14,530 nucleotides of DNA from Candidatus Hermodarchaeota archaeon (GCA_016839995.1 JAEOTD010000067.1:1-14530), one strand, 5' to 3'; numbered from the stretch's first letter, positions 2,207 to 14,530 are shown. A program made the numbers and translations. Notes: generated from the sequence alone by a model not told the origin.

Positions 2207-2692
2207 ATGCCTGTCGTTTACACCTATTGTGAGATGTGCAAGGCGTATATAGCGATAGACGTTGCGCCAGATATTATTCAGCGACAAAACGTCTTTCCGT
2301 TTCCATATTCCTACGTCCATGGCGAGCCTACGCATGTCATCACAATCTACCTTGACCAAGATTTAGTTGAACGGGGGCATGAGGTTTCCGAAATTCATTC
2401 AGGTAACCAAGTCGAAGTAACACAAGCTCAGCCTGGGGCATCCCCTCAACCCTCGAGCCCTCCTCCATCCACAATGGTTGGCACTAGAAGTCGTCGGATT
2501 GTTCCAAAGGTTGTTGCGGATTTGGAGAAACAAAAACTCTCCATCACCGAATTCCGCATGCTTAGTTTATGCGATGGAAAAACAACCCTTCAGGAAATTG
2601 CTGAGAAAATGGGATTACAGTTTTTCATCGCTATGCGAATGCTTTTGGATCTTCAAAAGCGGAAGCTTGTAGATTTCGAAAAACGATTCTAA
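2207..2692 (+). CDS. hypothetical protein: N-terminal beta-rich domain, Pro/Ser linker, C-terminal winged-helix-like segment
   Basis: 161-aa ORF. A GGGAG box lies 7 nt upstream of the ATG, and a TATATA lies about 30 nt upstream. The C-terminal 'LSITEFRMLSLCDGKTTLQEIAEKMGLQFFIAMRMLLDLQKRKLV' has the helix-turn-helix/wing pattern of MarR/TrmB-like wHTH domains. I did not recognise the N-terminal 'FPFPYSYVHGEPTHVITIYLDQD' domain. Confidence 0.5.
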   Translation: MPVVYTYCEMCKAYIAIDVAPDIIQRQNVFPFPYSYVHGEPTHVITIYLDQDLVERGHEVSEIHSGNQVEVTQAQPGASPQPSSPPPSTMVGTRSRRIVPKVVADLEKQKLSITEFRMLSLCDGKTTLQEIAEKMGLQFFIAMRMLLDLQKRKLVDFEKRF

Positions 2693-2757: not shown

Positions 2758-3267
2758 ATGGGTGTCAAAGGTTGGATTGGCTGGCACTTTAAGATGCAAA
2801 AAACCTCACTGAATGCATTCCAGGCTTTGGTTGCAGCAGTAATTGACGATGTTCTAGAAGACAGTAAAGGTGATGTCAACCTAGCAAATCAGAAGCTATT
2901 GCGCTTAGGAAATGCCATGGCTGAGACCTTGTTATTTGAATACAGCGACACAATTGGACAGCACGCAACCACCTTTGATGGTTTTCTCGACACTTTCACG
3001 TTAGCTACCAGGGTAATGTTAGGCAAAGGCTTTGACAATGCCTATTACGATAAAGCCGAAAGAAAAATCGTTTATGTATTTGAAGACTGCCCCATTTGCC
3101 AAAACATTCGAATGTCTGACGAGTTTCATGGTCTGAAGTACTGTAACATCCTCAGTGGAGTATTTCAACACGTTCTAACTCTCCGGGGTTTCAATAGTAT
3201 ATGCGAAGAAGTCCAATGCAGAACGTGGGGTTCTGACTCTTGCATTTGGGAGCTAAGAGAACAATAG
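2758..3267 (+). CDS. V4R (4-vinyl-reductase) domain protein, the fold family related to eukaryotic Bet3/TRAPP subunits
   Basis: GGTGA at 2747-2751 lies 6 nt upstream of the ATG. The C-terminal 'CPICQNIRMSDEFHGLKYCNILSGVFQHVLTLRGFNSICEEVQCRTWGSDSCIWEL' fits the V4R pattern C..(G)..G......v.E..C...G...C.f.l. Confidence 0.65.
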   Translation: MGVKGWIGWHFKMQKTSLNAFQALVAAVIDDVLEDSKGDVNLANQKLLRLGNAMAETLLFEYSDTIGQHATTFDGFLDTFTLATRVMLGKGFDNAYYDKAERKIVYVFEDCPICQNIRMSDEFHGLKYCNILSGVFQHVLTLRGFNSICEEVQCRTWGSDSCIWELREQ

Positions 3268-3371
3268 GCAGTACCCACACCATCAAAAAAATCCTTCATT
3301 AGTTAATTTTGAAACTGTCGAAGAAAGTTTGATAAGGCAACTCATGTCAGAGACACGATGAGGTAACCATT

Positions 3372-4652
3372 GTGTCCAAAAAAACTTCAGCTATTAGTGG
3401 ATTTTATCGTTTATCCATTCCAGAGCGCTTAGATAAGCTGCGTGAGTTTGCAAATCTTACCGATGAAGATATCGCCACATTAGAGACCTTTGGAGCTCTT
3501 GATGCTGCTACAGCGGATCGAATGATTGAGAACGTGGTTGGCTCGTATGCTTTTCCTCTTGGAATGGCTACAAATTTCCAGATAAACGGTCAAGACTACC
3601 TCATTCCCATGGCATTAGAGGAACCTTCTGTTGTAGCAGCCGCCTCAAATGCCGCAGGGATGACACGAGAACAGGGCGGTTTTACTGCAAGTACAACAGA
3701 CCCCGTAATGATAGGGCAAATTCAAGTAGCTGATATTCCTGACTTAAAAGTAGCACAAAAGTCGATTTTAGAACAAAAAGAGAATTTGTTGAGAGTGGCT
3801 AATGCACAAGATCCTGTCTTAGTCAAATTTGGAGGAGGTGCGCGCGATTTGCAGGTCCGTCGATTGGACACCATGATGGGACCCATGCTAATTGTCCACT
3901 TACTTGTTGATGCCCGTGATGCCATGGGCGCAAATGCTGTTAATACGATGTGCGAAATGCTTGCCCCTCTTCTTGAAGATTTAACCAAGGGAAAGGTGTA
4001 CTTACGGATTCTATCCAACTTAGCAGTGAATCGTCTTGCTCGAGCAGAGGCAACATTTCCAGTTAAAGCCTTAGGCGGAGCAAAGGCAGTTGAAGGGATT
4101 TTGAAAGCTTATGCTTTCGCCCAAGCGGATCCCTACCGCTGTGCCACCCATAATAAGGGAATAATGAATGGTATCGATGCCGTGCTCCTTGCTACTGGAC
4201 AGGATTTCCGAGCTGTTGAAGCAGGCGCACATACGTATGCAGCAACACGAGAGGGAGGTTATCAATCCCTGACACACTATGAAAAAACCGCTGAAGGTGA
4301 TTTACATGGTTCTATTGAATTACCCATGGCTGTCGGACTAGTAGGCGGAGCGACCCGAACTCACCCAGTTGCACGCTTATGTGTGAAAATCTTAGGAGTA
4401 AAAACAGCCAATGAGCTTGCACAAATTATTGCTAGTGTGGGATTAGCCCAAAACCTCGCCGCATTGCGTGCTTTAAGCCAAGAAGGTATTCAGAAAGGAC
4501 ACATGAAGCTACACGCTCGAAATGTCGCTGTCGCTGCAGGAGCTTTTGACGATGAGGTCGACCAAGTCGCTCAGAAAATGATTACTGAAAAACGCGTTCG
4601 CTTTGATAGGGCACAAGAAATCCTCGCTGAGCTTCGAAAGAAAACTACATGA
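3372..4652 (+). CDS. mvaA: hydroxymethylglutaryl-CoA reductase, class II (soluble, Pseudomonas mevalonii MvaA type)
   Basis: GTG start, with GAGGT at 3360-3364 about 7 nt upstream. 426 aa with no N-terminal membrane domain. Class II motifs are present: 'MIENVVGSYAFPLGMATNFQINGQDYLIPMALEEPSVVAAASNAA', 'HNKGIMNGIDAV', 'GQDFRAVEAGAH', 'GHMKLHARN'. Confidence 0.9.
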   Translation: MSKKTSAISGFYRLSIPERLDKLREFANLTDEDIATLETFGALDAATADRMIENVVGSYAFPLGMATNFQINGQDYLIPMALEEPSVVAAASNAAGMTREQGGFTASTTDPVMIGQIQVADIPDLKVAQKSILEQKENLLRVANAQDPVLVKFGGGARDLQVRRLDTMMGPMLIVHLLVDARDAMGANAVNTMCEMLAPLLEDLTKGKVYLRILSNLAVNRLARAEATFPVKALGGAKAVEGILKAYAFAQADPYRCATHNKGIMNGIDAVLLATGQDFRAVEAGAHTYAATREGGYQSLTHYEKTAEGDLHGSIELPMAVGLVGGATRTHPVARLCVKILGVKTANELAQIIASVGLAQNLAALRALSQEGIQKGHMKLHARNVAVAAGAFDDEVDQVAQKMITEKRVRFDRAQEILAELRKKTT

Positions 4653-4747
4653 CACAACAATTTCTTATACACATCATTCCCTCATATGTATTGAATGCTC
4701 ACGTTGTGTGGCTGCACTATCGTGATGAACTAGCGGTGAACCATTAA

Positions 4748-5683
4748 ATGAAACAGTACATCGGGATGATTGAAATCCTGGGTGAAGGGGGCGAAATGCT
4801 TCCACTTCACTGGAATCCTAAACATCTAGTAAATGGTCGGTCGATACTAATTGTTGATGAGACCGAGGGGATTATCTGGGTGTGGTTGGGTAAAGGGACA
4901 TCGATGTTACAACGTACAACAGCTCTTCGTCAGGCCCGGTTTATAATGAAAAACGGTACCCGTGTTGAAGAGACCCATTTTGGCACTAAATGCACAAATT
5001 TCATTGAAGTACCTGGTGATCTGGCGAATCCAAAAGCGGCACTCCTCAGAAACCTCCTTGAAACGCATCCCAAAACTTCTGACTATCTTGTAGTTACCCA
5101 AGAGGAAGAAACGGTTTCAACGTTTGAAGAGTCCTTCCAAGACAAAGTTGAGGTTATTGAGCAAACAGTTGTCCCTGAACCTATTCGCAAGGTTACACCG
5201 GTGCGTCGACGAATTCTAACGTATGAAGAACAGCTAGCAACAAAAGTGCTTTTTGCTGTATCCGATTGCTATGGACAGGCTTCTATGAATCCAATTGGCC
5301 CCAATGAGTTCTTGGTTTCGGTGCTTCGATTACAAATGCGCTTTTTCTGTCAAGGAGAGGCAATTTTATTCTCTGAGATTCGAGCGGCTGCACAAGAGGA
5401 TCTTGACGCCTTTACTCGGTGTTTTGGTCAACAACCCGAACTAACTGCAGAGGGACAAATATTTGTTTCATCCACCCTTCTAACATCTGAACCACCAACC
5501 CCATCAAGTGATAAACCAGCATCTGTTGTTGAATCCATGCGTGAACAACTGTCTCAGATAAGTCACAATGCTTCGGATCAAGATGACGAGGAACCAGACG
5601 ACACAGCAGAGGAAGAAAGTGAAGACGAAGAAGAAGAGGAAGACAAGAAGAGCGGCTCTTCTGATTTTGAACTATTTGAGTAA
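4748..5683 (+). CDS. gelsolin-like domain protein, paralogue 1 (Gel domain, linker, uncharacterised C-terminal module, acidic tail)
   Basis: GGTGA at 4735-4739 lies 8 nt upstream of the ATG. Residues 1 to about 117 carry 'SILIVDETEGIIWVWLGKGTSMLQRTTALRQARFI...NFIEVPGDLANPKAALLRNLL', which parallels the gelsolin repeat pattern (hydrophobic-D strand, xWxG, basic/acidic long helix). The C-terminal tail is 'DQDDEEPDDTAEEESEDEEEEEDKKSGSSDFELFE'. A T5 run follows the stop. Confidence 0.6.
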   Translation: MKQYIGMIEILGEGGEMLPLHWNPKHLVNGRSILIVDETEGIIWVWLGKGTSMLQRTTALRQARFIMKNGTRVEETHFGTKCTNFIEVPGDLANPKAALLRNLLETHPKTSDYLVVTQEEETVSTFEESFQDKVEVIEQTVVPEPIRKVTPVRRRILTYEEQLATKVLFAVSDCYGQASMNPIGPNEFLVSVLRLQMRFFCQGEAILFSEIRAAAQEDLDAFTRCFGQQPELTAEGQIFVSSTLLTSEPPTPSSDKPASVVESMREQLSQISHNASDQDDEEPDDTAEEESEDEEEEEDKKSGSSDFELFE

Positions 5684-5688
5684 TTTTT
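5684..5688 (+). terminator. oligo-T run directly after the paralogue-1 stop (archaeal-type terminator candidate)
   Basis: The sequence reads TAA-TTTTT-cttgtattt. The next gene is convergent. Confidence 0.45.
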
Positions 5689-5772
5689 CTTGTATTTGGT
5701 GTTGCGTTACCCTGCAATAACAAGTCGTATTGGACGTCGCTTCATTCTCATTTGTGAAAAGAGGGATTAGTG

Positions 5773-6015
5773 TCATGCATGAGTTGAAACTTTTTCAACA
5801 CGCAGCCATGGATTTTGTCGGGTAAACTCAAAAAGAGATTGGGTGAATCGTTCTAAGTCATCGAGCTCAATGACGAAGTTGAAACGTCCTTCCCCTAGGG
5901 GTAATTTGCTGATAATACGTCCATGTTGGTTGAGGAGAAGATTGATCCAACCCGTTTTTGTTGCGTTTTCTTCACGGGTTGTACCTCGGTAGGAAAGCGA
6001 AATATTAGCTTTCAT
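5773..6015 (-). CDS. small hypothetical protein (80 aa, predicted beta-alpha-beta-beta-alpha-beta pattern)
   Basis: A strong SD, GGTGAGG at 6020-6026 on the minus strand, lies 4 nt upstream of the ATG at 6015. No family was recognised. The alternating strand/helix propensity suggests a ferredoxin-like fold. Confidence 0.55.
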   Translation of the reverse strand: MKANISLSYRGTTREENATKTGWINLLLNQHGRIISKLPLGEGRFNFVIELDDLERFTQSLFEFTRQNPWLRVEKVSTHA

Positions 6016-6099
6016 ATAGCCTCACCTTACGTTAGTTCTTTGGCAACTGAGCCGACTTAAACCTTTCCGAAGACGTGTTGAATTACAGCCTTTGACGGA

Positions 6100-6687
6100 T
6101 TAAGCAGTGGATTCAGAGCGGGTTGAAGAAGAATTGGCGCGGAAACGATATGAGATGAGATCGTAGGCAATATCGAACCCCCAGAATGCAACTGTATGAA
6201 CTAAGGTCAATAAGCCAAGGAAGGGAAGGATAAGAACTATGATTTTCAATAATGGCCGGTGAACGATAGCCCAGCGTAAAGTAGAATGTGCAATTTGAGA
6301 AGCTTTGGAATGGAGCAACTCGTCCATTATCGAAGCAACTAAGATGATAATAAGTGTGGGAAAACCCATTAGAAATCCAGACATAACCAGAAGTCGAAAG
6401 AAACTCAGGGGTAGTGTGGTGATTGTCAGAAGCAAAAAGAAGCTGCTGTCAACTTTACGTGTTACGATTAGACCTAATATGATTCCAATAACCAGAATCG
6501 CTGTGTAGAGATCAAAAAATACCCAGATATTGACGAGAATTACTAGCCCACATGTCACCACCCATAGAGAGGTATGACGTGATTGAAACTGAACAGGAAA
6601 ATCGGTTGCCAAATCAAGGAGTTTGATACCTGCACCGAGGAGCACATAGGATACGATTAGAGCTAGTGCAAAAAGAACGAGACTCAT
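6100..6687 (-). CDS. polytopic integral membrane protein (about 6 TM segments), family unknown
   Basis: 195 aa and dominated by hydrophobic stretches, for example 'SLVLFALALIVSYVLLGAGIKLL', 'LWVVTCGLVILVNIWVFF', 'LYTAILVIGIILGLIVT', 'PLLKIIVLILPFLGLLTLVHTVAFWGF'. It starts 27 nt downstream of the paralogue-2 stop on the same strand. Confidence 0.7.
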   Translation of the reverse strand: MSLVLFALALIVSYVLLGAGIKLLDLATDFPVQFQSRHTSLWVVTCGLVILVNIWVFFDLYTAILVIGIILGLIVTRKVDSSFFLLLTITTLPLSFFRLLVMSGFLMGFPTLIIILVASIMDELLHSKASQIAHSTLRWAIVHRPLLKIIVLILPFLGLLTLVHTVAFWGFDIAYDLISYRFRANSSSTRSESTA

Positions 6688-6714
6688 TATTCCATGCCTT
6701 TAATCTATAATGGT

Positions 6715-7425
6715 TTAACCGGCAATGCTTTTGAGTTCGTGGGCCACCAACTCTTTGAGTTCCTTAGGAGTTTTTGAATCCCATTTGAATGTTAATTTGC
6801 CTTTACTGCGTTTCATCTCGTGGGTAAGCCCATCAATTCCCTCTATTATCACTTCTTCAGTTTCACCCTTACTTCGATATTCAATGTGAACTTGTTGATG
6901 GACGCGGATAATCGCCAGTAGTGCCGCTTCCAAATCAAGTTTGGATGCCTTTTTCGCAGGTGCTCTTGTTTCTGTTGGTGTTACTGTTTCATCGGGTGAA
7001 ATACTTGCTGATACAGGAGCTGAAGAAGCACCCCCTTGAAGTGTTCCCACAATAAGTGTTCCCTTGGGACTTGCTATCGTAGAAATTTCCATTGGAGATT
7101 CTAACAAGGCGATGAGGTTTGAATAATTGTTTGATGTGGTGGGATCTTCCAAGTTATCTGCATCAATGAGGACAAGGGAATACCCTCGTCCCAAGACTTC
7201 GTCACCAATTCGCTGGCCTTCCGTGGTGATTTGTTCAGCTTTTGCTTTTGCTGTACGACGTTTGTCATATTGAACACCAGTACCCATCCAGAACCAGAGA
7301 GTTTTGTTTTGTTCATCAACAACACCGACACATACATCACCTCGGAGTTTTCGGGCTCCAGGACGAATCGATCTAACAAAGCCTAGGCCACCGATTTCCA
7401 ACATTACGACTCGTGACATGTGCAT
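6715..7425 (-). CDS. gelsolin-like domain protein, paralogue 2 (Gel domain, Ser/Thr/Pro linker, uncharacterised C-terminal module)
   Basis: 'VCVGVVDEQNKTLWFWMGTGVQYDKRRTAKAKAEQI...SLVLIDADNLEDPTTSNNYSNLIALL' aligns position for position with paralogues 1 and 3. The start is ambiguous. The ATG at 7425 is only 2 nt from the GGGGTG box, whereas the in-frame ATG at 7419 ('MSRVV...') has 8-nt spacing and may be the true start. Confidence 0.6.
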   Translation of the reverse strand: MHMSRVVMLEIGGLGFVRSIRPGARKLRGDVCVGVVDEQNKTLWFWMGTGVQYDKRRTAKAKAEQITTEGQRIGDEVLGRGYSLVLIDADNLEDPTTSNNYSNLIALLESPMEISTIASPKGTLIVGTLQGGASSAPVSASISPDETVTPTETRAPAKKASKLDLEAALLAIIRVHQQVHIEYRSKGETEEVIIEGIDGLTHEMKRSKGKLTFKWDSKTPKELKELVAHELKSIAG

Positions 7426-7448
7426 AGCACCCCATTTGACACCATTCG

Positions 7449-7469
7449 AATAGAAATGTAATTTCTATT
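7449..7469. repeat. perfect 9-bp inverted repeat with a 3-nt spacer (AATAGAAAT-gta-ATTTCTATT), 24-44 nt upstream of the paralogue-2 start
   Basis: Read directly from the sequence. It is AT-rich and overlaps the position where a TATA/BRE for a short-leader transcript would sit. Confidence 0.6.
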
Positions 7470-7491
7470 GAAGCAATTTTTACCACGATTT

Positions 7492-7515
7492 CACCTATCT
7501 AGTGATGGATAGGTG
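7492..7515. repeat. perfect 8-bp inverted repeat with an 8-nt loop (CACCTATC-tagtgatg-GATAGGTG)
   Basis: Read directly from the sequence. It lies in the 198-nt spacer between paralogues 3 and 2, and TTTT follows it on the plus strand. Confidence 0.6.
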
Positions 7516-7607
7516 TTTTCGGGCTAGGTCCGGTTTAGAATTTGTTACCGTATTTATTAAGTTGACCCTGCGCATACTTTGGCTGTAATATCTAATACAG
7601 TTCCTGC

Positions 7608-7613
7608 AAAAAA
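7608..7613 (-). terminator. T6 run 10 nt after the paralogue-3 stop (archaeal-type terminator candidate)
   Basis: The minus strand reads TAA-cccacggaaa-TTTTTT-gcagg. Confidence 0.45.
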
Positions 7614-7623
7614 TTTCCGTGGG

Positions 7624-8391
7624 TTAGAGGTCAGCGGCGGCTAATCGATCTCGGAGAAGACCTAGTATATCATTACGTCTTCCACGAAAATCGTATCGTT
7701 GCAGAAAATGAACTGAGTTTTGACTTACTTCCACTTGGCAGATGATACCTTCAGGATCTTCTACTGAATAGCGAGTTCCTTCGTCCGTTTTTGTAACACT
7801 TACATAGCACATTGGAAAAAAGTCAAGGATTGATGAGATGAGAATTCCTACACGGATGATGCCGAGACCTTGAAGCTCTCGGGAAGGTTTCGGTGCAACT
7901 GTTTCAGTAGTAGGCTTGGCGGGAGCAGCTTCAGTTACAGCAGGGGTTGGTGTTGTGACTTTTTCAACGGGGGCTGGTTGAGGAGCGGGTTTTGTTGGTG
8001 GAGGAGCTGGTGAGGGCGTTCCTCCAAAGCGCCCCAGGACTCCTTCTGTGATGTTGAACTTCTGGCTCAGGGTATGAATTAGTTGGTCATAGTATCCTTT
8101 GATTTCAGGGTCGTCGAGGATTTCACCATCAATAATTTCGATGTTTGTAACATCACGACCAATGCGGTATGGACCTAGTTGATAGCCTGCGCTTACAAGA
8201 GAGCGGGCTTTTCGTTGGGCGGCCCGTCGTTCAACAAGTGTGGTTGAGGAGCCTTGCCAGAGCCAGACCCGCTCCTTGAGTTCGTCGATAGCTATGACGA
8301 TTCGATCGTCGGTTAGAGCCTCGGTTGATAAGGGGAGGGGTTCGATTATCCCTGAGGAAAAATCGAGTAGTAACACAAATTTATCTGCCAT
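7624..8391 (-). CDS. gelsolin-like domain protein, paralogue 3 (Gel domain, Pro-rich linker, uncharacterised C-terminal module)
   Basis: 'DRIVIAIDELKERVWLWQGSSTTLVERRAAQRKARSLV...IEIIDGEILDDPEIKGYYDQLIHTL' is the closest of the three to the gelsolin repeat consensus (xWxG...s..ER.aA...A). The linker is 'GGTPSPAPPPTKPAPQPAPVEKVTTPTPAVTEAAPAKPTTETVAPKPS'. A T6 run on the minus strand follows the stop. Confidence 0.65.
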   Translation of the reverse strand: MADKFVLLLDFSSGIIEPLPLSTEALTDDRIVIAIDELKERVWLWQGSSTTLVERRAAQRKARSLVSAGYQLGPYRIGRDVTNIEIIDGEILDDPEIKGYYDQLIHTLSQKFNITEGVLGRFGGTPSPAPPPTKPAPQPAPVEKVTTPTPAVTEAAPAKPTTETVAPKPSRELQGLGIIRVGILISSILDFFPMCYVSVTKTDEGTRYSVEDPEGIICQVEVSQNSVHFLQRYDFRGRRNDILGLLRDRLAAADL

Positions 8392-9707: not shown

Positions 9708-10616
9708 ATGGCAAGGAATTCAGCGACTGAGAAAGATAAGTTTGGAGCTATTCTGGACCAGTTACGGAAAGTACAAGCAGCAAACCGAGTATTAATACGG
9801 GGAATTCAGGAAGCAAAGAATCGAGCATGGGAATGGCGTGACAGACGAGATGAGTTACGTTCAGAAGCTCCTGTTGTTCATGAGGAAATGTCTGATCAGC
9901 GAACTAGACGGGATGAATTGAACGCAGAAGTTCAGCACCAGAAAAAGTTACGAGATGAGGCAAATGAGCATGTTCGATTGTTACAAGAACAGCTCCACGA
10001 ATTACGAGCGCAGCGAGATAATCAACGGAACTATATACCATTAGAGGAGTTACAACGACAATTTCGTGAACTCGAATGGAAACAGCAGACTACTACGCTT
10101 ACAGTAGAGGAAGAGCGAATCCTCTTAGATGAGATGGAAAGATTATCAAAAGCGATGGAAACTGCACCAACTCACACTTCTCAGTCGGCAAACCAATCAG
10201 AAGAAATGGATGAATTGTGGCAAGAGATTCAAGAAGCTCGAGATAAAGCACAAGAACATCATGAGAAAATGATAGCACTTGTTGAAGAGGCACAACAAAC
10301 ACATCGAAGTATACTCGGTTTATCTCAAGGACTTGGTCCTGCTCGATCAGAGGGTGATGAAGCTCATCAAGAGTATGTTAAATGCCTTCAAGAAGCAGAT
10401 GAGATGCGGGAACGAGTAGATGTATTACGAGAACAGGAAAGAGAGCTGAAATCTCAACTAGATAGTATTCGAAAAGATCAGAAGGCTTCTCGTCAAGCAC
10501 AAGAGCAGGCGGCTATGGAGAAATTAGCAGAGCAGGCTAAGGCTAAACAACAAGCTGGGCAAAAACTGAGCATGGAAGAGCTGCGAGCCTTGATGGAATC
10601 GGATGGAATAGGGTGA
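9708..10616 (+). CDS. charged coiled-coil protein (resembles the archaeal COG1340-type uncharacterised coiled-coil family)
   Basis: 302 aa, rich in E/R/Q/K with heptad-like periodicity. It contains 'LEWKQQTTTLTVEEERILLDEMERLSKAME' between two long helical halves. There is no SD, and ATTTAA at 9682-9687 lies about 23 nt upstream of the ATG, which may indicate a leaderless mRNA. The family assignment is from memory of the pattern only. Confidence 0.55.
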   Translation: MARNSATEKDKFGAILDQLRKVQAANRVLIRGIQEAKNRAWEWRDRRDELRSEAPVVHEEMSDQRTRRDELNAEVQHQKKLRDEANEHVRLLQEQLHELRAQRDNQRNYIPLEELQRQFRELEWKQQTTTLTVEEERILLDEMERLSKAMETAPTHTSQSANQSEEMDELWQEIQEARDKAQEHHEKMIALVEEAQQTHRSILGLSQGLGPARSEGDEAHQEYVKCLQEADEMRERVDVLREQERELKSQLDSIRKDQKASRQAQEQAAMEKLAEQAKAKQQAGQKLSMEELRALMESDGIG

Positions 10617-13942: not shown

Positions 13943-14530
13943 TTACACCTCAGGAAAGAGTTTCTCCATCAGTTGTGTAGCCAAATCTGTGAAGGCTTCA
14001 GTGACGTTGCGCCCATCTAAGGCACTGGTTTCATAGTATTTTCCTTGAATACGATCAGTTGCTTGTGTTGCGGCGTATTCAGATACGGCTCGTTCTGATT
14101 CTAAATCGGTTTTATTTGCCAAGACTACTCGGATAAAATCGTTGCCTAGGGTTGATGTGACCTCGTCTAACCATTTGGATTCGACTGCTGATGCAGATGA
14201 GGCGCGAGTAATATCAAAGACGAAAATAACTGCATTGGCACCAGTATAATATCTCTGACGAAGTGGTTGAAATCGTTCTTGACCCCCAGTATCAAATAAT
14301 TGTAGTTTCAGTTTTTGTCCTTTCACATCTATGATTTTGGTGACAATATTGACTCCAATACTTGGTTTATAGTCATGCTCAAATTTATTTTCAGCAAACC
14401 GCCGGATTACACTGGTTTTTCCTACGCCCCAATCACCAACAATAACGACTTTGACAACGTATCCGGCTTTCCCAGGTGTTTCAGCTTCAGAGGTATTTGA
14501 AGGATGAGATTGTGCGCAGATTGTCCTCAC
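13943..14530 (-). CDS. Ras-superfamily small GTPase, Rab/Arf-like (Asgard-type); the N-terminus is at or beyond the window edge
   Basis: G1 is 'GDWGVGKTS'. Switch I is 'YKPSIGVN' (compare Rab 'STIGVDF'). G3 is 'DTGGQERF', G4 is 'NKTD' and G5 is 'ETSAL'. The protein ends '...MEKLFPEV' with no C-terminal Cys. The ORF is open to base 14530, where a GTG happens to sit, so the true start is uncertain. Confidence 0.85.
   Translation of the reverse strand: MRTICAQSHPSNTSEAETPGKAGYVVKVVIVGDWGVGKTSVIRRFAENKFEHDYKPSIGVNIVTKIIDVKGQKLKLQLFDTGGQERFQPLRQRYYTGANAVIFVFDITRASSASAVESKWLDEVTSTLGNDFIRVVLANKTDLESERAVSEYAATQATDRIQGKYYETSALDGRNVTEAFTDLATQLMEKLFPEV
13946..13951 (-). promoter_or_regulatory. Shine-Dalgarno GAGGTG embedded in the last codons of the GTPase gene, serving the TTG start of the downstream DUF885-like gene (translational coupling)
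   Basis: The minus strand reads cct-GAG-GTG-TAA-tcct-TTG. The motif is complementary to the archaeal 16S 3' end consensus and has 7-nt spacing to the TTG. Confidence 0.6.

Follow-up and report, generated by a model that had tools for sequence, protein, structure and literature searches.

What occupies the non-gelsolin part of the Asgard archaeal GelX proteins has been at issue since 2020, and three genes in a 14,530-nucleotide stretch of DNA from Candidatus Hermodarchaeota archaeon (GCA_016839995.1 JAEOTD010000067.1:1-14530), referred to here as the window, raise the question again. The genes encode P1 (open reading frame [ORF] at 4748-5683, plus strand; 311 amino acids), P2 (6715-7425, minus strand; 236 amino acids), and P3 (7624-8391, minus strand; 255 amino acids). 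The original prediction, made by a model from the sequence of the window, held that a single C-terminal module of no assignable family is common to all three proteins and that it may correspond to the X of Asgard 1DGelX proteins. The modules instead fall into two types: a pan-Asgard family found in P2 and P3, and a P1 type whose homology to that family is unproven. The source of the window is a Hermodarchaeota-type Asgard archaeon, and its three genes are paralogs that code for one-domain gelsolins and lie in a conserved cluster. They provide a concrete handle on the X question in the form of a bounded, confidently folded domain of ~80 residues.

The three proteins are tied together by their N-terminal ~115 residues, which are mutually similar as single sequences (BLASTP expectation [E] values of 3e-12, 3e-10, and 7e-6) and as family profiles (hhalign probability of 97-99%, with E values of 1e-11 to 1e-17). 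Each protein has 48-65 ortholog clusters in public data, none of which carries a Pfam domain. In P1, the gelsolin-like domain spans residues 1-118 (4748..5101, plus strand) and is paralogous to the N-terminal domains of P2 and P3; its match to the Pfam Gelsolin repeat (PF00626) is weak, at 15.7 bits and an E value of 0.014, and lies below the gathering cut-off of 21. The gelsolin-like domain of P2 spans residues 1-117 (7075..7425, minus strand) and aligns with the N-terminal domain of P3 at an hhalign E value of 1.5e-17. Neither P2 nor P3 matched PF00626 in a Pfam scan of the full proteins.

The gelsolin fold of P3 residues 1-121 (8029..8391, minus strand) was recognized from an AlphaFold2 model, which has a predicted local distance difference test (pLDDT) score of about 88 for this domain and orders its elements as four strands, a long helix, three strands, and a helix. 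A Foldseek search of the PDB with the P3 model returned Thor ProGel (7c2f_B) as the top match, with a target-normalized template modeling (TM) score of 0.74, followed by the Asgard 2DGels 7c2h_G and 7whg_G and by domains of human gelsolin, adseverin, and villin, at a probability of 1.00. Given the hhalign probabilities that link the P1 and P2 domains to that of P3, we infer that they share the gelsolin fold. The Asp...Trp-x-Gly core, known as the DWG motif (PMC7444086), is conserved in all three families: the P3 family keeps D36, W45, and G47 without exception; the P2 and P1 families have D37, W46, and G48, each of them either invariant or conserved to at least 90%; and W44, W46, and G48 are invariant in the P2 family. 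P1, P2, and P3 are three divergent one-domain gelsolin paralogs, with N-terminal domains that are recognizable by fold and not by the Pfam model.

Are the C-terminal segments domains in their own right? Conservation was assessed as mean pairwise identity and length spread over the orthologs of each protein, which number 48-63 per family. The gelsolin domains have 69-75% mean pairwise identity, and the C-terminal modules are conserved like them (69-74%) and are indel-free; the linkers of P2 and P3 and the tail of P1 have 34-37%. Sharp blocks of conservation thereby delimit a C-terminal segment in each of the three proteins, with boundaries that differ by only a few residues from those in the original prediction. 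These segments are real folded domains, as evidenced in P1 and P3 by conservation on a par with the gelsolin domains, fixed length, and AlphaFold2 pLDDT scores above 90. The possibility that the segments are disordered, which would have told against a shared module, does not apply to P1 and P3, for which pLDDT is 91-97.

P3 consists of a gelsolin domain, an ~50-residue disordered Pro-rich tether, and an ~80-residue compact module made of a helix, a four-stranded meander, and a helix. The tether, rich in Pro, Thr, and Ala (residues 122-173; 7873..8028, minus strand), contains 29% Pro, has pLDDT scores of 33-37 over residues 130-173, and varies from 49 to 85 residues across the family at 35% mean identity. 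The module (residues 174-255; 7627..7872, minus strand) has pLDDT scores of 91-97 and comprises helix 176-189, strands 196-201, 206-212, 215-223, and 226-229, and helix 239-252. It is 70% identical on average and fixed in length at 82 residues, and it has homologs in other Asgard classes, to which it aligns with an hhalign probability of 99.4%.

P2 has the same plan. An Ala/Ser/Thr/Pro-rich variable linker, recognized by its composition (residues 118-160; 6946..7074, minus strand; 43-54 residues long, with 37% mean identity), is followed by a module of 75-76 residues (residues 161-236; 6718..6945, minus strand) with 74% mean identity. Pairwise BLASTP comparison of the C-terminal parts of P1, P2, and P3 gave no match. 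However, the family profiles of the P2 and P3 modules align collinearly in hhalign, with MAFFT agreeing on the pairing of strands, and their score of 17.0 compares with 10.5 ± 2.0 for column-shuffled profiles, none of 60 shuffles reaching it. When the P3 module was combined with its relatives outside the Hermodarchaeota P3 family, as collected in a search of representative proteins, the resulting expanded family profile scored 23.2 against the P2 module in hhalign, versus a null of 10.8 ± 2.1 (z of 5.9, P of 6e-4, and 0 of 80 shuffles). The strand-by-strand parallels between P2 and P3 that the original prediction had pointed out are exactly those of the hhalign and MAFFT alignment, and they are above chance by the same shuffles.

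Independent evidence comes from a module hidden Markov model (HMM) for which the only input was eight sequences belonging to other Asgard lineages. Among 398 ORFs, this HMM ranked the P3 proteins first (E of about 1e-19, and 9e-20 for P3) and placed all five available P2 orthologs directly after them, in the correct region, with an E value of 0.0015 for P2 of the window. In the reciprocal direction, an HMM of the P2 module matches the module of the "Hodarchaeota" protein P0188, also with an E value of 0.0015. Moreover, a Glu-x3-Gly motif at the hairpin between strands 2 and 3 is invariant in P2, in P3, and in all aligned members from other lineages. Because profile scores, the independent HMM, the reciprocal search, and the shared motif agree, the P2 and P3 modules are judged homologous by sequence comparison; P2 and P3 carry the same module, with P2 a divergent member of the P3-type family. 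The P2 module would accordingly be laid out as a helix, four strands, and a helix, by alignment to P3. One proposed link does not stand: an "(A/G)IIRV" motif thought to be shared by the first helices of P2 and P3 falls at different positions in the ungapped alignment that MAFFT prefers and that scores better in the profile comparison. The motif lies 13 residues from strand 1 in P3 and 3 residues from it in P2, and the match is probably fortuitous.

P1 is built differently. Where P2 and P3 have the low-complexity linker expected from the original prediction, P1 has a connector (residues 119-155; 5102..5212, plus strand) that is conserved, acidic, and not low in complexity, with a helix at residues 126-140 in AlphaFold2 (pLDDT of about 71), 54% mean pairwise identity, and a length of 37-44 residues. 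The module that follows (residues 156-241; 5213..5470, plus strand) was delimited by conservation and by an AlphaFold2 model of residues 106-311, in which its pLDDT is 94-96; it is 69% identical on average and fixed at 86 residues. Its elements are helix 159-175, strands 179-182, 187-191, 195-202, and 205-213, helix 216-226, and strand 231-240. The predicted order of helix, four strands, and helix is therefore borne out by the models of P3 and, with one extra strand, P1, and would extend to P2 by alignment.

By every sequence test, nevertheless, the P1 module appears distinct from those of P2 and P3. Compared with the profiles of P2, of P3, and of the expanded family, it scores under the shuffle mean (z of -0.6), and the P2- and P3-type module HMMs gave no match to it; because no profile or HMM matches, these tests place it outside the P3-type family. 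The Glu-x3-Gly motif is absent from the P1 family, in which the turn between strands 187-191 and 195-202 reads VLR, and helix 1 has its own conserved polar residues (R154, R155, Y159, E161, Q162, K166, and D173). The claim of one module common to all three proteins thus holds for P2 and P3, and pairwise HMM-HMM comparison gives it no profile similarity in P1.

The original view, in which all three modules descend from one ancestral domain and the P1 copy has diverged beyond sequence recognition, is one that we regard as possible but rather doubtful. The P1 and P3 modules share the element order of helix, four-strand meander, and helix; all three modules lie C-terminal to paralogous gelsolin domains; and the gelsolin domains of P1 and P2 are about equally far from that of P3 (54 and 56 bits), so whole-gene duplication of a P3-like ancestor is the simplest history. 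Yet the P2 module is still detectable although the gelsolin domain of P2 has diverged by a similar amount, and no HMM crosses over to P1. P1 also departs from the other two in its missing Glu-x3-Gly hairpin, its own set of polar residues on helix 1, its extra strand, its conserved connector in place of a disordered tether, and its added tail. A helix, a four-strand meander, and a helix form a simple topology that can arise repeatedly.

The added tail (residues 242-311; 5471..5680, plus strand) is the actual low-complexity region of P1. It is acidic (net charge of -21) and disordered, with pLDDT below 50 except for a helix at residues 260-273, and it varies from 55 to 88 residues at 34% mean identity. 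Two motifs in it are conserved family-wide: SV(V/F)DSMR(E/K)QLS on the helix (residues 259-270; 5525-5566, plus strand) and a C-terminal [FY]-x-[LF]-F (5666-5680, plus strand), which is preceded by GGS(S/T)(D/E) or NPGY. The tail may resemble acidic-plus-aromatic linear motifs such as the GFGLFD tail of the ribosomal P-stalk or the acidic region of actin nucleation-promoting factors. Weak matches to N-WASP are compositional.

The modules of P1, P2, and P3 match no described family in Pfam or PDB sequence searches, in agreement with their being called uncharacterized in the original prediction. Pfam scans of the full proteins and of 22 P3-module, 22 P2-module, and 19 mixed family members returned scattered chance matches only. 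PDB sequence and profile searches with the single proteins and with P3-module, P2-module, expanded-family, and P1 alignments found no match to a module; the sole matches were weak gelsolin ones to the N-terminal domains. Foldseek found no PDB structure at an E value below 0.001 for the P1 model, and its best PDB match, RelE (3bpq_B; E of 0.11, TM of 0.37), was not accepted. Against the viral database BFVD, the P3 model matched only unnamed phage proteins, with E values above 0.001.

The modules are not degenerate gelsolin repeats. Asgard archaea commonly have two-domain gelsolins (PMC7444086, PMC9433394), and each module occupies the position of a second repeat, so the three proteins might have been eroded 2DGels; this explanation is effectively refuted, and we consider it extremely improbable. 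In hhalign, every pairing of a module with a gelsolin domain had a probability of 0.1-0.4%, the module order of helix, four strands, and helix differs from that of the P3 gelsolin domain, and the modules, at 75-86 residues, are too short for a gelsolin repeat. The N-terminal domains of P1, P2, and P3 have the gelsolin fold in common with Thor ProGel and Asgard 2DGel (PDB 7c2f, 7c2g, 7c2h, 7whf, and 7whg). In contrast to P1, P2, and P3, however, Thor ProGel has no C-terminal module, and Asgard 2DGel has a second gelsolin repeat and calcium sites. Taken together, the architectures and family assignments given here for P1, P2, and P3 are very probably correct.

How widespread is the P3-type module? 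Run against 1.84 billion representative proteins, the P3-module profile identified five full-length proteins outside the Hermodarchaeota P3 family that consist of gelsolin domain, tether, and module, with the lineage labels Asgardarchaeia, Hodarchaeota, Freyarchaeota, Ranarchaeia, and Helarchaeota; at least five other Asgard lineages have this architecture. In these other lineages, the protein is encoded by a single gene in an unrelated neighborhood. Their gelsolin domains score 49-88 bits with the P3 HMM, compared with 32-54 bits with the P1 and P2 HMMs. These much higher scores with the P3 HMM mark P3 as the conservative copy of a pan-Asgard protein and make P2 and P1 duplicates specific to the Hermodarchaeota lineage.

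The original prediction also asked whether the module always occurs with a gelsolin domain. It does so in the five other Asgard lineages but not in the P0190/P0199 family, whose members (223 amino acids) have the module at the N terminus, then a linker rich in Pro and Ala, and beyond it a different, unassigned C-terminal region, and carry no gelsolin domain. Because these proteins bear the module without a gelsolin domain, the P3-type module is an independent evolutionary unit. P0199 is encoded at 4001-4672 of locus L024, and the gene upstream of it (3164-3853) encodes a coiled-coil plus transmembrane protein. The giant repeat proteins P0185 and P0186, met in the search of representative proteins, were rejected as relatives; they score only through the sum of eight weak stretches, each with a domain E value of 0.1-0.9. 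The module family can thus be offered with a signature, namely, the Glu-x3-Gly hairpin plus fixed length, together with its pan-Asgard distribution and a gelsolin-less instance.

Within the Hermodarchaeota, the gene order of the three paralogs is stable. A genome scan for the P3 family yielded 16 genuine loci in metagenome-assembled genomes labeled Hermodarchaeota or "Promethearchaeota." In every locus whose contig extends far enough, P2 comes next after P3 on the same strand, and P1 is found another 2.4-3.4 kb along, on the opposite strand. A further P3-family match, in "Loktanella" (locus L021), is antisense to a bacterial gene and spurious. In the window, the gap between P3 and P2 (7426-7623) is 198 bp of noncoding DNA. 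In L001 and L002, which represent the most divergent Hermodarchaeota lineage, an extra gene of 152 amino acids lies between the P3 and P2 orthologs (L001 6904-7362 and L002 3320-3778); it matches neither the gelsolin HMMs nor the module HMMs.

The nearest described class for P1, P2, and P3 is the Asgard 1DGelX/GelX proteins (Thor KXH72031.1 and L. ossiferum B35_GelX UYP44381.1), beside which the three are set here by published descriptions. The architecture fits: a long linker joins a single gelsolin domain to a C-terminal part that is unassigned and has no similarity to gelsolin domains. Also, 1DGelX/GelX proteins, like the P3-type proteins, are spread over several Asgard lineages. The proposal that the module is the X of 1DGelX therefore agrees with the architecture but not with what has been written about X, which was described as a predicted coiled coil in 2020 (Akil et al. 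2020; PMC7444086) and as a disordered region of unknown function in a 2025 preprint (bioRxiv 10.1101/2025.11.30.690169). The P1 and P3 modules, in contrast, are compact alpha/beta domains with five and four strands, respectively, and high pLDDT. Moreover, the gelsolin domain of 1DGelX is reported to be 35-47% identical to ProGel (PMC7444086), whereas the P3-family domain matches Thor ProGel only at a profile E value of 0.34, with ~24% identity over 42 columns. Compared by description, the proteins of the window are thus not readily equated with the published Thor 1DGelX, because both the accounts of X and the similarity to ProGel differ. A further difference from 1DGelX/GelX is the presence of two module types in a single gene cluster.

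What might the modules do? Thor 1DGelX can sever, bundle, and nucleate actin in the absence of calcium, but ProGel, which is the domain alone, lacks severing activity; in the proposal of the authors of that work, side-binding to the filament is contributed by the C-terminal extension (PMC7444086). We propose that the modules of P1, P2, and P3 may be autonomous protein-interaction domains. Their candidate partners would be one another, through self-association or association of P2 with P3, the side of the actin filament, or some other partner. Carried on a flexible tether, the module would provide another attachment point for a gelsolin domain that binds actin monovalently, which a one-domain gelsolin would need to sever, bundle, or nucleate filaments. 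The unrelated module and motif-bearing tail of P1 would give it a different partner. This proposal is suggested by the arrangement of a compact, conserved, fixed-length domain on a variable Pro-rich tether behind an actin-binding domain, and by the occurrence of the same domain next to a similar linker in a gelsolin-less protein.

A parallel is available in villin, supervillin, and dematin, whose gelsolin-type domains gain a second binding site from a small autonomous domain attached at the C terminus by a flexible linker; cross-linking or bundling is thereby enabled, and the P3-type module would work likewise in our proposal. The villin headpiece is small and all-helical, and the surface with which it binds filamentous actin is known. 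The P1 and P3 modules, however, are alpha/beta domains and do not match the Pfam VHP model, so the likeness is one of analogy, not of membership. A tethered module for interaction or oligomerization is therefore put forward as a tentative idea, somewhat short of an even chance.

A different role, in which the P3-type module anchors the gelsolin domain to a membrane or membrane protein and so localizes it to the cell envelope, strikes us as improbable. In P3, hydrophobicity over 19 residues peaks at helix 1 and strand 1 (Kyte-Doolittle value of 1.82), a gene for a multi-pass membrane protein lies between P2 and P1 in every Hermodarchaeota locus, and the gelsolin-less P0199 adjoins the gene for a coiled-coil and transmembrane protein. 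Also, a green fluorescent protein fusion to 1DGelX was concentrated at nuclear-envelope and endoplasmic-reticulum-like regions of human cells (PMC7444086). Against this, AlphaFold2 places the hydrophobic helix of P3 in the interior of a compact domain, with pLDDT above 90, and the equivalent helix of P2 is not hydrophobic, the maximum for P2 (1.06) being elsewhere in the protein. The adjacency of the membrane protein gene is weak evidence where the whole neighborhood is syntenic, and in Freya and "Asgardarchaeia" genomes, the module-bearing gene has other neighbors.

As a whole, duplicated gelsolins with two module types that serve as tethered interaction modules are the best explanation of the locus, and we hold it with moderate confidence. 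Several points weigh against it. The conservation of gene order spans the whole neighborhood, housekeeping genes included, and gene order therefore says little about functional coupling of the three paralogs. The functional step draws on architecture and analogy, and the layout of the P2 module is predicted from its alignment to P3. P1 comes from a P3-like ancestor and has the same element order, and its module may therefore be the same domain, changed too far to be recognized. In addition, the P3 module may have a known structural neighbor, as gelsolin domains filled the list of PDB matches that Foldseek returned for the full P3 model.

A bolder version would make the P3-type module an undescribed small fold, ancestral to Asgard archaea, that in archaea takes the functional place of the villin headpiece; P2 and P3 would pair through it, and P1 would have a second, independent new fold and a linear-motif tail that recruits a partner. 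We consider this version unlikely. If it were true, the P3-type module would be a tethered filament-side-binding or dimerizing unit that makes a severing and bundling factor of a one-domain gelsolin. Under the preferred explanation, too, the three proteins form a natural set in which the gelsolin domain is roughly constant and the C-terminal part varies, so that truncations and domain swaps can directly test what the extension contributes to severing and bundling. Nothing known is overturned.

Other genes share the neighborhood of the three paralogs. Between P2 and P1, every Hermodarchaeota locus examined encodes a multi-pass membrane protein (6100-6687, minus strand; 195 amino acids) and an 80-amino-acid ORF (5773-6015, minus strand), neither of which has a Pfam match; both are also between P2 and P1 in the most divergent Hermodarchaeota loci. 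Upstream of P3, a gene at 9708-10616 (plus strand) encodes a Glu/Gln/Arg-rich protein of 302 amino acids, probably a coiled coil, that matches DUF7121 with an E value of 1.6e-17; it stands beside a gene for an M24 peptidase, and this adjacency is conserved. At the end of the window, a gene for a Ras-family small GTPase (13943-14530, minus strand; Pfam Ras, E of 4e-48) runs past the last nucleotide, and its position is kept in related contigs. The 169-amino-acid product of 2758-3267 (plus strand), syntenic in other Hermodarchaeota contigs, has sub-threshold Pfam matches to V4R and a TRAPP (Bet3-like) component and is a possible membrane-trafficking-type signature protein. Finally, a gene at 2207-2692 (plus strand) encodes 161 amino acids, of which an N-terminal region of ~70 residues includes a Cys-x2-Cys pair; a linker rich in Pro and Ser follows, and the C terminus matches a winged helix (HTH_47, E of 2e-4, under the cut-off). 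The gene's product is another protein of this neighborhood in which a Pro-rich linker joins two domains.

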